From the IMG/VR virus record IMGVR_UViG_3300012227_000062: DNA of 14,729 nt; one strand, given 5' to 3'. The notes under the pieces were generated by a model that saw only the letters and a program-made list of their open reading frames with translations, was not told where the DNA came from and did not search any database. The position numbers were made by a program, and so were the translations under genes. This document shows, piece by piece, positions 2 to 7,575 of this stretch. Source of the stretch: a virus. Position 1 is the first letter of the stretch. Each line of letters begins with the position of its first letter.

Positions 2-604
2 CAAGCGCTGCGCAACGGCTACCAGGGCGAATCGACTGCCGGGCGCGCGTCGTTCATCTCCGGCAAGAAACCGAACGGCGCCGCTGGCGAAGACTGGCAG
101 CGCTCGCAACCGACTGAGGAGGATGTCGCCTACAGCCAGCTCGTGTTCGGCTGGATCAAAGAAAGCACGGACCCGAGCGAATACATGTACAACCTCCGCG
201 TCGCTGCCGCGCAATTCGGCGTGACCGGGCGCACGGAGGGCCTCTTGGCTTCCGCGATTGGCGCCTACCAGCGCGACGTCGAGAAGAAGATCGCCGCGCA
301 AGCGAAGCCGAAGACCGAAAGCGCCCATGTGGGCGAGATCGGCGCCCGTCTCGTATTCCGCCTCACCGTCCTGCGCCGACTCACCGTCGAAACCGCGTAC
401 GGCGGCCTCACGATTCACGTGCTGGAGGATGCGAGCGGCAACGTGTTCGTTTGGAAAACTGGCAGCGCCTACCTCGACTCCGGCAAGACCTACGACGTTA
501 GAGGCACCGTCAAGAAGCACTCTGACTACAAGGGCCGCAAGCAAACCGAGCTCTCGCGTTGCACAGTAGTGCTCGCCGCGTCCGAGCAGGAGAAATCAGC
601 ATGA
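2..604 (+). CDS. Hypothetical protein, 5'-partial; the reading frame is open from the window edge. The C-terminal region looks OB-fold-like.
   Basis: Frame 2 is open from nt 2 with no stop, and the first ATG is at 143. Stop TGA at 602-604 overlaps the next gene's ATG at 601 (ATGA). Amino-acid composition is protein-like. The C-terminal stretch 'TIHVLEDASGNVFVWKTGSAYLDSGKTYDVRGTVKKHSDYKG' looks like a beta-rich OB-type domain. I recognise no family. Confidence 0.55.
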   Translation, partial: QALRNGYQGESTAGRASFISGKKPNGAAGEDWQRSQPTEEDVAYSQLVFGWIKESTDPSEYMYNLRVAAAQFGVTGRTEGLLASAIGAYQRDVEKKIAAQAKPKTESAHVGEIGARLVFRLTVLRRLTVETAYGGLTIHVLEDASGNVFVWKTGSAYLDSGKTYDVRGTVKKHSDYKGRKQTELSRCTVVLAASEQEKSA

Positions 605-1197
605 ACGGCGACTACAAAGAAGACGATTTCACCACTGGGCCGAAGCCCAAGCTTGCGGAGGTCATCACGCTCGCCGACCGGCGCTCCCCGCCGCAAGAAG
701 AACCTCTGTCAGGTCCGGTTCGAGCCTACCAGGCTGCACTCTGTACCGAGATGGATCGCCAGCGCGAGCAGAGCAAACACCACACGATCGGTGCGAAGTA
801 CGTGCAAGGTAGAGACGTTGCCGAGGTGGCACGTTTGCTGCGCGCGGACATCGCGGAAGCAATCAGGATGTCGGAGCTCCCGAAGGGGCTCAAGTGCTCG
901 GTCCGTATCGCGCGCTACGCGGGGGGGCAGAGTCTCAACCTGGAGGTGACGGCGTTACCGGCTGAGCTGGCGCTGGCCAACCCGGCGAGGGTGCTCTTCG
1001 ATAAGACGCACCCGCATCGCCCGCACCCCGCGGGGATGGGCCTCTACAGCGACGAAGCGACACAGCTTGTCGCCAAGCTCGAGAAGTTAGCCAACGCCTA
1101 CAACTACGACCGATCGGACTCGATGACCGACTACTGGGACGTCAACTTCTATCTGCACGTCGAATTCTCGTTCGCAGTGCGCCAGGCAACCAAATGA
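601..1197 (+). CDS. Hypothetical protein, 198 aa
   Basis: ATG at 601 with AGGAG 11 nt upstream and an ATGA overlap with the previous stop. The alternative start at 559 lacks an RBS. The stop overlaps the next gene's start at 1194 (ATGA). No recognisable motif. Confidence 0.6.
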   Translation: MNGDYKEDDFTTGPKPKLAEVITLADRRSPPQEEPLSGPVRAYQAALCTEMDRQREQSKHHTIGAKYVQGRDVAEVARLLRADIAEAIRMSELPKGLKCSVRIARYAGGQSLNLEVTALPAELALANPARVLFDKTHPHRPHPAGMGLYSDEATQLVAKLEKLANAYNYDRSDSMTDYWDVNFYLHVEFSFAVRQATK

Positions 1198-1631
1198 AGA
1201 TCCCGGAATATCGAATCAGCCTCGTTCGTGAGCGCGTGCTCAGCTACCGCAAGCTCGACAGCTCGCGCAGTACGGCGGCGGTCCTTCATGCGATGCTCGA
1301 CGACGCCGACCGCGAGAAGATCGTGACGCTCTACGTCAACGGTGTCGGGGAGCTCATCGGCGCGGAGATCGTGGCCATTGGCAGCATGCACCAATGCGGG
1401 GTGGTCGCGAAGGACGTGTTTCGCGGGGCCATCGTCGGCGGGGCAGCGGCCATCATCCTCGGGCACAATCACCTGTCGGGGGATCCGACGCCAAGCTCAG
1501 CGGACATCGATGTCACCAAGATGCTGAGCGCCGCGGGCGCCCTGCTTGGTTGCAAGGTGCTCGACCACGTGATTGTCAGCCCGAACGGGCGCGACAAGTC
1601 GATGTTTGATTTGGGGCTCATCGAAGCGTGA
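1194..1631 (+). CDS. RadC-like JAB/MPN domain protein (UPF0758 family)
   Basis: The motif 'AIILGHNHLSGDPTPSSADIDVTKMLSAAGALLGCKVLDHVIV' matches the RadC/JAB signature HNHPSG..PS..D...T..L......LLgi.vlDHiIv. It is translationally coupled (ATGA) to the upstream gene. Confidence 0.85.
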   Translation: MKIPEYRISLVRERVLSYRKLDSSRSTAAVLHAMLDDADREKIVTLYVNGVGELIGAEIVAIGSMHQCGVVAKDVFRGAIVGGAAAIILGHNHLSGDPTPSSADIDVTKMLSAAGALLGCKVLDHVIVSPNGRDKSMFDLGLIEA

Positions 1632-1649
1632 AAAAAACTCAGGGTGACT

Positions 1650-1694
1650 CCTTTGAACGAGGTCGGGGCCTGGCGCCCCGGCTTGGTTCAAGGG
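1650..1694 (+). terminator. A strong imperfect 20-bp stem with a 5-nt loop. It is probably a terminator, attenuator or RNA-processing hairpin between the RadC-like gene and the next gene.
   Basis: cctttgaacgaggtcggggc / ctggc / gccccggcttggttcaaggg. Of 20 positions, 16 are Watson-Crick, 3 are G-U wobbles and 1 is a mismatch. A modestly T-rich tract (ctttctctct) starts about 8 nt downstream, so this is not a canonical intrinsic terminator. Confidence 0.35.
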
Positions 1695-5896: not shown

Positions 5897-6474
5897 AATT
5901 GCGTATCCAAAACTACACGGCGTATCGAACGGTCGATCTGCGCCGGTTCTTTACGGCGGGCCTGCGGGCGATGGTTGTCACGCGGTCAAAGACGATCGAG
6001 GTGCGCTACCGGTCGGGCCGGCTGACGTGTTCACGGGCAACGCTCGGCGCGTTCGAAGAGGTCAGCGCCGTCGATGCCGATGGGCTGCCGTCGAAGAAAT
6101 GGCGGCTCGATGAGGGGCGCTGGATTCGTATGCTCATTGGTAAGCCGAGCCCGTCAGGTCCCGACCTGCGCCGGTTCGCGCGCGTGTTCGAGCACGAGGT
6201 GCTTCACAATAAGGGCGTCGGGCATCGTGAGATGACACCGGCACAGTGGCGCTGCGATGAGCCACTGCCGAAGTGGGCCGATGGCCTGGTAATCCGATTG
6301 AAGGAGGTCAAGGCGAAGCCGACCGCGGCGGACAGAGTGGCCGGCCGCGCAGAGCACGCGCGGGAGATGCTTGCGGCGTACGAGCGCAAACAGAAGCGCG
6401 TTGCGACGCTCCTCAAAAAGTGGCGGGCGAAGGTGCGCTACTATGAGCGACGCGCAGCAGCGAAGGCTCTTTGA
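5893..6474 (+). CDS. Hypothetical protein with an HEVLHNKGVGH (HExxHxxGxxH) zincin-like motif and a basic coiled-coil C-terminus
   Basis: ATG at 5893 (ATGA coupled). The motif matches HExxHxxGxxH exactly, but there is no other family evidence. Confidence 0.55.
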   Translation: MKLRIQNYTAYRTVDLRRFFTAGLRAMVVTRSKTIEVRYRSGRLTCSRATLGAFEEVSAVDADGLPSKKWRLDEGRWIRMLIGKPSPSGPDLRRFARVFEHEVLHNKGVGHREMTPAQWRCDEPLPKWADGLVIRLKEVKAKPTAADRVAGRAEHAREMLAAYERKQKRVATLLKKWRAKVRYYERRAAAKAL

Positions 6475-6600
6475 AATCTAGTGGTACAAGTGGGTACATT
6501 TTCAAGCGATTAGCTACCGTTTGAAAGCGTGCACATGAGGTCAAAGAACGGGAAAGCCTAGCCTCACCACTAGATTTGAAAGAGCTGCAAAAGGGACCTC
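6469..6600. promoter_or_regulatory. AT-rich intergenic island that probably holds a promoter or operator for genes 14-15
   Basis: A 15-bp inverted repeat (6471-6485 ttgaaatctagtggt / 6566-6580 accactagatttgaa) has 1 mismatch and flanks about 80 bp. TTTGAAA occurs three times, at 6470-6476, 6520-6526 and 6575-6581. A candidate sigma70-like pair is TTGAAA (6471-6476) and TACATT (6495-6500) with an 18-bp spacer. GC is about 45% against about 65% background. Confidence 0.4.
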
Positions 6601-6954
6601 ATGGAAACGAAGCGGTATGGAACGGTCGACGTGGATTGGGAGTGGGAGCAGTTCGAACCCGTGGCTGAAGAGCAAGCCGAGGATATCTACGAAGAGCAAG
6701 CCGACATCGTGATTTTCGATCCACGTCGCTGTCCGCGCCATCCCAACGTCCAGACGTCGAGCGATGATGGCATGTTCGATGCGCCCTGCGGCGAGTGCGA
6801 GTATGAGTCCGACAGCTGGGCTGAACGCTACGAGTGGGAGCGACCGGACCGGCCAATCGCCCGGTGCGGGCTCGGCTACCGGTACTGGGGTTATGATCCC
6901 AAGGGTGAGCTAGTGAGCTGCTTGGCCACGCTGAACGACGAACTGGTGTTCTGA
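6601..6954 (+). CDS. Very acidic small protein with a Cys cluster, 117 aa
   Basis: RBS aaaagggacctcATG. About 29 D/E residues against about 12 K/R. Cys-containing motifs CPRHP, CGEC and ARCG. Confidence 0.6.
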   Translation: METKRYGTVDVDWEWEQFEPVAEEQAEDIYEEQADIVIFDPRRCPRHPNVQTSSDDGMFDAPCGECEYESDSWAERYEWERPDRPIARCGLGYRYWGYDPKGELVSCLATLNDELVF

Positions 6955-7575
6955 ATGAAAGCGAGAATGCCGAGAAACTGCGGCGACTGCGGCGCCCAGC
7001 CTGGCGCGCTGCACATGCAGGGATGCGACGTCGAACGTTGCGCGCTCTGCGGCTACCAGGCCATCGCCTGCGGCTGCGTCTACAAGCTGTCGGGTCTGAA
7101 CCGCACGGACATGGAAGAGACGCATCCCGACATCTTCGAGAACGGACCGACCGAGGAAATGGAAGCAAGGCTCGACGCCGAGGTAGAGAAGTACGGCGGG
7201 CGCCTGCCGTGGACGGGTGAGTGGCCCGATGCGGACGTGTGCCGTGAAATCGGCATCTACAACTTCTGGGGACCGGGCGGTTTGGTGTACTGCTCGGAAG
7301 ATCATCCCGAAGCGGGAGAAGATTTGAATCGGCTGCACATGCTGGCTGTGTGGGACAAGGTGAAGCGCAAGATGGTGCCCCGCCGCAAGCGGCGCTCGGC
7401 CGCTGAGCTCGCGGCGGCGCCGGTCGGTTCGCTGACGGGCGTCGAGGTGCTCGGCGAGCTCCAGTACGTCAACGACGAGGGGCTTCCCGATGGGTTTCGG
7501 CTGTACGTGCACAGCAGCCGTGCTGATGTCGGGCGCCAAGTTCGCTGCTGCGGGAGTGGTGCTGCCGGTGGTTGA
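6955..7575 (+). CDS. Cys-rich hypothetical protein, 206 aa
   Basis: The start lies directly after the upstream stop (tgaATG). The N-terminus CGDCG...GCDVERCALCGYQAIACGC carries multiple Cys pairs, presumably Zn-binding. Confidence 0.5.
   Translation: MKARMPRNCGDCGAQPGALHMQGCDVERCALCGYQAIACGCVYKLSGLNRTDMEETHPDIFENGPTEEMEARLDAEVEKYGGRLPWTGEWPDADVCREIGIYNFWGPGGLVYCSEDHPEAGEDLNRLHMLAVWDKVKRKMVPRRKRRSAAELAAAPVGSLTGVEVLGELQYVNDEGLPDGFRLYVHSSRADVGRQVRCCGSGAAGG

Follow-up and report, generated by a model that had tools for sequence, protein, structure and literature searches.

The early and accessory regions of tailed phages are built of co-directional small genes that frequently overlap by 4 nt and that turn over and shuffle between relatives, their products matching PHROGs only or carrying no annotation at all. 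A block of this kind occupies positions 2-7575 of IMG/VR virus record IMGVR_UViG_3300012227_000062, an entire public metagenome contig of 14,729 bp without host flank (the window), in which 15 co-directional open reading frames (ORFs), g01 to g15, span the + strand, and Tad2-like and Tad5 genes lie nearby in the window or its closest relative. The block differs from the described phage regions in that the contig links it to no virion or packaging gene and in that 2-7575 holds no match to a characterised anti-defence gene. It probably represents early or accessory genes of a tailed phage with a high-GC bacterial host, or of an integrative element resembling such a phage, and it is an ordinary example of tightly packed mobile-element early genes. 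A phage is favoured because homologues of g12 (5171-5896) occur on at least 97 IMG/VR viral contigs, because one such relative (L133, an 81-kb IMG/VR contig with a 53% identical g12) carries, about 5 kb away, a 463-aa ORF matching baseplate-J-like proteins of several isolated phages, and because a gene resembling the major vault protein (MVP), downstream of the block, is common to large phage records.

Other mobile elements offer further points of comparison. The anti-defence islands in the leading regions of conjugative plasmids (Samuel et al. 2024, PMC11541004) likewise place many small proteins of unknown function on one strand and have plasmid-shared domains in common with the window. However, the window is not anchored by an oriT or relaxase, it encodes none of SSB, PsiB, ArdA, KlcA and Acr, and it offers no convincing counterpart of the Frpo-type single-strand promoter of these regions, a long hairpin that holds its -35 and -10 in the paired stem (PMC11541004). 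Polyvalent proteins (Iyer et al. 2017, PMC5512222) share with the block a RadC JAB domain, a zincin-type HExxH domain and a domain of giant SNF2 proteins, but whereas they fuse 2-15 domains, those of the window are separate small ORFs with their own stops, joined by overlaps. The CP4-type and SRL islands of Enterobacteria (KlcA, RadC-like YeeS, YeeU/YeeV, DUF957, DUF4942) also combine a RadC-like gene with a DUF4942 gene in one co-directional block; in contrast, the window lacks KlcA, the YeeU/YeeV toxin-antitoxin pair and Ag43, has a different phylum-level background (63% GC), and its other genes are unrelated. The products of the block draw on a domain pool common to phages and conjugative elements, namely RadC JAB, DUF4942, the giant-SNF2-protein domain and a metzincin-like domain.

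The features of the block are the following:

2-604, + strand: g01, last 200 aa of a larger protein whose 5' end is lost at the contig end
601-1197, + strand: g02, 198 aa, ATGA overlap with g01
1194-1631, + strand: g03, RadC-like JAB protein, 145 aa
1643-1711, + strand: long hairpin then a T-rich run, about 25 paired positions, stem at 1643-1702
1743-2135, + strand: g04, about 130 aa, acidic, alternative start TTG at 1725
2132-2398, + strand: g05, 88 aa, orphan, GTGA overlap with g04
2395-3219, + strand: g06, DUF4942 protein, 274 aa, standalone, without methyltransferase domain
3216-3689, + strand: g07, 157 aa, basic
3686-3901, + strand: g08, 71 aa, basic, orphan, ATGA overlaps at both ends
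3898-4503, + strand: g09, 201 aa, N-terminal CxxC, Arg-rich tail, 4 Cys
4500-4841, + strand: g10, 113 aa
4838-5137, + strand: g11, 99 aa
5171-5896, + strand: g12, 241 aa, 7 Cys
5893-6474, + strand: g13, 193 aa, 48-residue basic C-terminal helix (pI 10.7)
6466-6585, + strand: structured intergenic element, a 20-nt inverted repeat around an 80-nt lower-GC insert
6601-6954, + strand: g14, 117 aa, pI 4.14, net charge -18, 29 Asp and Glu residues, 5 Cys, orphan
6955-7575, + strand: g15, 206 aa, 11 Cys, N-terminal cluster of 7 Cys

All 15 ORFs show the coding bias expected at 63% GC, with GC at third codon positions (GC3) of 0.68-0.84 vs 0.40-0.56 at second positions (GC2); g01 stands at a GC3 of 0.81, g04 at 0.74, g05 at 0.79, g08 at 0.68 and g14 at 0.73. 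Their boundaries are the same in public gene calls for two other assemblies of the sample, whose shorter contigs are 100% identical to the window. This bias is absent from a 43-aa ORF at 1628-1759 (GC3 0.50), which would have added a GTGA overlap after RadC. Exact 4-nt stop/start overlaps occur at 10 of the 14 junctions (8 ATGA, 1 GTGA, 1 TTGA), and at least this many would arise by chance with P ~5e-5 given a 20% baseline, a value that is our own assumption. A preliminary description, made from the sequence of this DNA, had called the ten junctions consecutive; ten there are, but they form runs of 2, 7 and 1, interrupted by gaps of 111 nt (g03/g04), 33 nt (g11/g12) and 126 nt (g13/g14) and by the 0-nt abutment of g14 and g15. 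A purine-rich Shine-Dalgarno-like motif lies ahead of most starts.

Over the whole contig, GC is even, at about 0.57-0.67. It carries no terminal repeats that would mark a circular or complete genome and no tRNA genes, and an Rfam scan gave nothing above threshold, a weak COG2908 match (E 0.067) lying far under the gathering score. No integrase, terminase or capsid family emerged from scanning the ORFs with Pfam and PHROGs, in agreement with the preliminary description.

Distribution, relatives and identity of the element

The most widespread gene of the block is g12. An exhaustive profile search places 1,742 clusters at 50% identity in its family, with 236 clusters at 90% identity and 365 matches in JGI metagenome contigs, and the members are nearly always standalone proteins of 200-300 aa. 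In 185,579 species (one genome each), the profile finds only 21 loci, spread over many phyla and without synteny to the window beyond g12. This patchy occurrence, together with the mosaic make-up of the relatives, bears out the earlier view of the region as mobile-element early or accessory DNA and not a core operon; a syntenic operon in core genomes, the observation that would have spoken against it, occurs at none of the 21 loci.

The 96 large ORFs around g12 homologues include 8 integrases, the commonest neighbours of the gene, as well as helicases, methyltransferases, RecE/YqaJ, RecT, primase and replication initiators. Some distant loci are flanked by housekeeping genes (IleRS, HypF, photolyase and methylmalonyl-CoA mutase) and are therefore read as integrated elements, while in three Larkinella isolates a g12 homologue follows a relaxase and a coupling protein and adjoins Rep3 on a plasmid-like contig. 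Another homologue, on a 157-kb contig binned as Dehalococcoidia (L025), adjoins a 2,392-aa ORF at 1936-9114 in which RNA polymerase beta/beta' is fused, with a LAGLIDADG insert; fused RNA polymerase ORFs of this type are characteristic of very large phages. On a 33.5-kb IMG/VR contig with a 55% identical g12 (L130, 1398-12795), the neighbouring ORFs carry motifs, recognised by eye, that we take to mark ThyX (RHR...SxRY), an ATP-dependent DNA ligase (KxDG) and a Ro60/TROVE-vWA protein. Searches of 50,697 phage records returned no match to g12 by tblastn or to positions 1-7600 at the DNA level, and the window ORFs g20-g22 have no tblastn match among phage records. PHROG matches were obtained for g01, g02, g03, g06 and g09 and, outside the block, for a helicase and the Tad2-like gene.

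The relatives have g09, g10, g12, g13, g15 and g20 in common, in shuffled order, and their g12/g13 homologues are surrounded by extended series of very small ORFs that point the same way and often overlap by 4 nt. The series reads RadC, g09, g10, g12, g15, g13, MVP, g20, g22 in L007/L125; g01, g09, g12, g13, g20 in L005, a 182-kb IMG/VR contig; g13, g09, g12, g20 in L008, a 177-kb contig; and RadC, g09, g13, g12 in L032, while L043-L046 hold varied subsets of g07, g09, g10, g11, g12, g15 and g13. Across these loci g09, g12 and g13 are the best conserved and behave like core genes rather than fast-turnover accessories. By comparison, g04, g05, g08, g11 and g14 are orphans or nearly so, which neither Pfam and PHROGs nor the phage and plasmid records match and which have one match each at most among about 200 fetched loci. 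A fixed functional pairing of g12 and g13 was considered and rejected, distant g13 homologues having no g12 within 10 kb. L005 was read over about 25 kb of its length, and this stretch also contains a 774-aa intein-containing ORF with Hint and LAGLIDADG domains (13906-16230) and a TnpB-like gene (19048-20679).

The assignment to a phage has to be set against several observations. Capsid, terminase, portal and tail genes are missing from the contig and, in the four closest relatives, from the 10 kb on either side of g12, and the assignment itself draws on relatives at most 53% identical and on the IMG/VR classification. RadC together with DUF4942 is best known from integrative islands; the transcription-unit boundaries proposed below derive from predicted folding alone; and the presence of g12 beside a relaxase in Larkinella, or beside housekeeping genes elsewhere, means that its family is not phage-specific. 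Some of these observations fit the leading or establishment region of an integrative and conjugative element (ICE) or conjugative plasmid, whose first-entering genes are expressed early against restriction and other defences. The single orientation of all 15 genes would suit such a region, as would the joint occurrence of RadC and DUF4942 with KlcA in Shigella SRL / CP4-type islands, the Larkinella locus downstream of its relaxase and coupling protein, the plasmid-borne domains of g02 and g15 (that of g02 lying within a giant SNF2 polyvalent protein), a DUF932 gene near a g13 homologue, and the long hairpin with promoter-like hexamers at 6466-6585. That hairpin is, however, unlike the Frpo single-strand promoter described in PMC11541004. 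Relaxase, TraM, coupling protein and type IV secretion genes are found neither in the window nor in the examined stretches of the four close relatives, and SSB, PsiB, ArdA and KlcA are likewise missing from the window, a short contig, and from the close relatives. Moreover, the nearest relatives come from IMG/VR contigs, and an association with phages marks the flanking MVP-like, Tad2-like and Tad5 genes. The preliminary description had offered a phage early region and an ICE leading region side by side; the mobile element stands, the evidence leans towards the phage, and we regard the conjugative origin as unlikely.

Integration without transmission is a related possibility, in which the locus would be a non-transmissible genomic island or a decayed prophage that keeps accessory genes only. 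The distant g12 loci embedded among IleRS, HypF, photolyase and methylmalonyl-CoA mutase genes, the frequency of integrases as neighbours and the integrase 10 kb from g12 in L033/L034 agree with it, but none of the 22 window ORFs is a housekeeping gene, GC is even along the contig, the 15 ORFs are without exception intact and show strong coding bias, and relatives retain intact homologues on contigs of 68-182 kb with the same kind of genes, which makes this origin quite improbable. As for an ordinary operon in the chromosome of an uncultured high-GC bacterium, 4-nt overlaps and co-orientation occur in such operons too, yet the patchy spread across phyla, the lack of synteny beyond single genes, the viral and plasmid contexts and the near-complete absence of annotated products leave it barely credible. 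An early or accessory block of a phage or phage-like integrative element thus remains our preferred reading.

Conserved and variable genes of the block

Four Cys are invariant across the g12 family and suggest a Zn site; a set of charged and aromatic residues is invariant too. None of 33 members matches Pfam and there is no significant PDB fold match, although a helix-hairpin-helix (HhH) domain ends 2 of the 10 longer members. The g09 protein matches phrog_28271 (E 1e-6), with homologues in L005, L007, L008, L032, L043-L046, L064, L068, L069 and L082; judged by this recurrence, g09 is a core gene of this element group.

For g13, the nearest described proteins are the minimal metzincin and zincin folds (YbeY, Wss1/WLM, archaemetzincin and matrixins). 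It carries HExxHxxGxxH and a later Met, and H101, E102, H105, G108, H111 and M114 are invariant in 32 homologues. Structure comparison places it among zincins by its catalytic fold, with YbeY as the best match; YbeY is an RNase and not a peptidase. In contrast to the known minimal folds, g13 falls under every Pfam threshold and adds the 48-residue basic C-terminal helix: it has no Pfam match at E <= 0.1, and Peptidase_M10 is matched by only 6 of its 32 relatives (best E 3e-5). By motif and fold, g13 is a minimal metzincin-like protein, and any peptidase activity is putative.

RadC was the single family recognised in the preliminary description. Its identification is secure, since g03 matches PF04002 (E 2.6e-29, 102 bits vs a curated threshold of 22.1) and also phrog_10276, and the JAMM-type metal site, read from the translation, is complete (H91-x-H93-x7-S101-x2-D104). 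It is not, however, the only one. The g06 protein matches DUF4942 (PF13708, E 9e-35, 120.5 bits vs a cut-off of 25, positions 3-185 of 190) and, weakly, the non-catalytic half of phrog_6263, annotated as a DNA methyltransferase (positions 27-266 of 548); a 42% identical homologue lies on a 64-kb IMG/VR contig. PHROG families were also found for g01 and g02, besides g09. The g01 protein matches phrog_2319 (E 1e-35, positions 218-396 of 399) and has a full-length relative of 444 aa in L005. Its C-terminal domain finds tblastn matches in many large phages (Aeh1, phiAS5, DSS3-like and Gordonia) and in megaplasmids; one homologue is annotated as RecT-like, another as a DNA-binding domain protein, and the sequence pattern of the last ~100 residues looks like an OB-fold nucleic-acid-binding domain. 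In g02, the C-terminal domain matches positions 1012-1133 (of 1410) of phrog_1926, a family annotated 'released from the phage upon host infection' (E 9e-17); it recurs in gp34 of Mycobacterium phage Myrna and, on a Neptuniibacter plasmid, within an SNF2-related ORF longer than 11.7 kb.

Among the remaining genes, g07 is represented in L043 and L044 by homologues that are 77% identical and lie upstream of g09. Its domain corresponds to the C-terminus (residues 390-505) of the 522-aa protein P0301, at 60% identity, and g07 may be a detached domain of a longer protein. Homologues of g10 that are 73-76% identical follow g09 immediately in L007, L043, L044 and L045, and g11 has a single homologue, 85% identical, in L045 only, with no family match in Pfam or PHROGs. 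Neither collection holds a match for g04, g05, g08 or g14. AAGGGG lies 13 nt upstream of the g04 ATG at 1743; tblastn found no relative of g04 or g14 in any fetched locus, and the sequence of g08 looks helical. Homologues of g15 at 64% identity lie between g12 and g13 in L007 and L044. The N-terminal part of g15 is 31-33% identical to hypothetical proteins of Streptomyces linear plasmids and a Thioalkalivibrio plasmid, the Streptomyces relatives sitting in similar arrays of hypothetical genes. PDB sequence searches with g06, g13, g15 and the full-length g01 relative returned chance-level matches only. The acidic, Cys-rich and HExxHxxGxxH proteins noticed earlier are all present, as g14 by its acidity, as g15 (11), g12 (7), g14 (5) and g09 (4) by their Cys counts, and as g13 by its motif.

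Structured elements and transcription units

Two structured intergenic elements make it unlikely that the block is one 7.5-kb operon, and the single operon of the preliminary description is therefore doubtful. The hairpin at 1643-1702, downstream of RadC, folds as RNA at -55.8 kcal/mol (z -4.3) and as DNA with z -3.4, and a terminator-like site is called at 1685-1702. The feature at 1643-1711 is a candidate intrinsic terminator or RNA processing site that would close the g01-g03 unit. In the closest relative, L125, the hairpin is kept at 445-537 with an identical lower stem and an apical stem that is altered yet still pairs. The DNA conserved here between the two sequences comprises the hairpin, the ribosome-binding site and the start context, whereas the gene that follows differs, being g04 in the window and a RecA-like gene in L125. 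This comparison of two sequences is suggestive of genes being swapped downstream of a fixed regulatory element. Furthermore, the two other assemblies of the sample break within 1709-2319, inside g04/g05: ENA contigs meet at 1776-1779, and Logan contigs stop at 1709 and resume at 2319. These breaks suggest strain-level variation at 1709-2319, which fits a variable cassette at this site.

The second element, ahead of g14, is framed by inverted repeats at 6466-6485 and 6566-6585 that are 95% complementary, and its RNA fold reaches -53 kcal/mol (z -5.2). It holds several copies of TTTGAAA or its complement, as well as the sole sigma-70-like hexamer pair on the + strand of the window (TTGAAA-18-TACATT at 6471-6500), and it is absent from every relative locus fetched. 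Possible roles are a promoter/operator or an RNase III-type processing site. A Frpo-like single-strand promoter was examined and rejected: the stem takes in the -35-like hexamer but leaves the -10-like one unpaired, and as DNA the element folds weakly (-24.5 kcal/mol), its interior being poorly defined. Likewise, a motif common to both hairpins, CTCYTTTGAA, is no better than chance.

From these elements we infer 3-4 transcription units, namely g01-g03, g04-g11 (perhaps through g12-g13) and g14-g15, in which the 15 small genes would be read rightward, split by the terminator-like hairpin after RadC and by the structured element before g14. The ATGA/GTGA/TTGA junctions would couple the translation of each gene to that of the preceding one, so that few promoters could yield many proteins. 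The conserved trio g09, g12 and g13 may serve the DNA handling of the element itself, because the genes around g12 relatives encode integrases, recombinases, primases, helicases and methyltransferases and some of these relatives have an HhH domain, while the variable small proteins, the acidic g14 foremost, would be the likeliest factors of host takeover or counter-defence.

Flanking genes and the anti-defence question

Beyond the block, the contig carries genes that bear on its context:

within 7793-10989: g16, Ice_binding PF11999, signal or lipoprotein-like N-terminus
within 7793-10989: g17, SF2 helicase, phrog_16
10339-10989, - strand: g18, 216 aa, C-terminal Tad2-like domain, boundaries from the public gene call
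11051-13603, + strand: g19, 850-aa major-vault-protein-like protein (MVP_shoulder E 2e-29, Vault_3 E 1e-10)

The Tad2-like (Thoeris anti-defence 2) domain of g18 matches PF11195 (E 1.5e-10, 41.9 bits vs a cut-off of 25), and the N-terminal half of the protein, about 120 aa, has no assignment. A Tad5 gene is present in L125 at 13071-13595, a few kb past the point where the window contig would end. The MVP-like g19 shares 42% identity with ORFs of two uncultured-phage records (462 and 735 kb), 44-51% with ORFs of IMG/VR contigs that range from 115 to 436 kb, and 70% with its counterpart in L125; a 2023 preprint reported only two viral MVP homologues, both from gut phages (10.1101/2023.11.10.566534). 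The genes g16, g17 and g18 (7793-10989) are missing from the matching position in L125 and have the appearance of a variable insertion that separates g13/g15 from the MVP-like gene.

The preliminary description also saw in the block the look of an anti-defence gene set. The evidence falls short of showing this: within 2-7575, such profiles of established anti-defence families (Ard, KlcA, Ocr, Acr, Tad, Gad and others) as Pfam and PHROGs include gave no match to any ORF, and g09, g12 and g13 are retained in the manner of core genes. From its context, anti-defence may still be a reasonable label for the region, because of the Tad2-like and Tad5 neighbours, the pairing of RadC with DUF4942, the domain overlap with polyvalent proteins and the turnover of small orphans. 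We regard it as a tentative possibility, on the doubtful side, that the array includes one or more genes with a novel role in the protection or processing of the element's incoming DNA. The best candidate is g12, because of its predicted Zn site, its ~1,700 clusters, its lack of a Pfam or PDB fold match, its phage, integrated and plasmid-like settings and its occasional HhH fusion. As a second candidate, the acidic g14 and the Cys-rich g15, placed behind a structured element of their own, could act as an inhibitor of the DNA-mimic type.

The g12 gene marks a very large and widespread mobile-element protein family that is named by no curated database, and g13 would define a compact metzincin-like protein with a basic helix. 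The value of the region lies in being a source of candidates, including orphans such as the acidic g14 near Tad2-like and Tad5 genes. If any of these proteins blocks a bacterial defence, it would add to the anti-defence catalogue for the poorly sampled soil and sediment phages of high-GC hosts.

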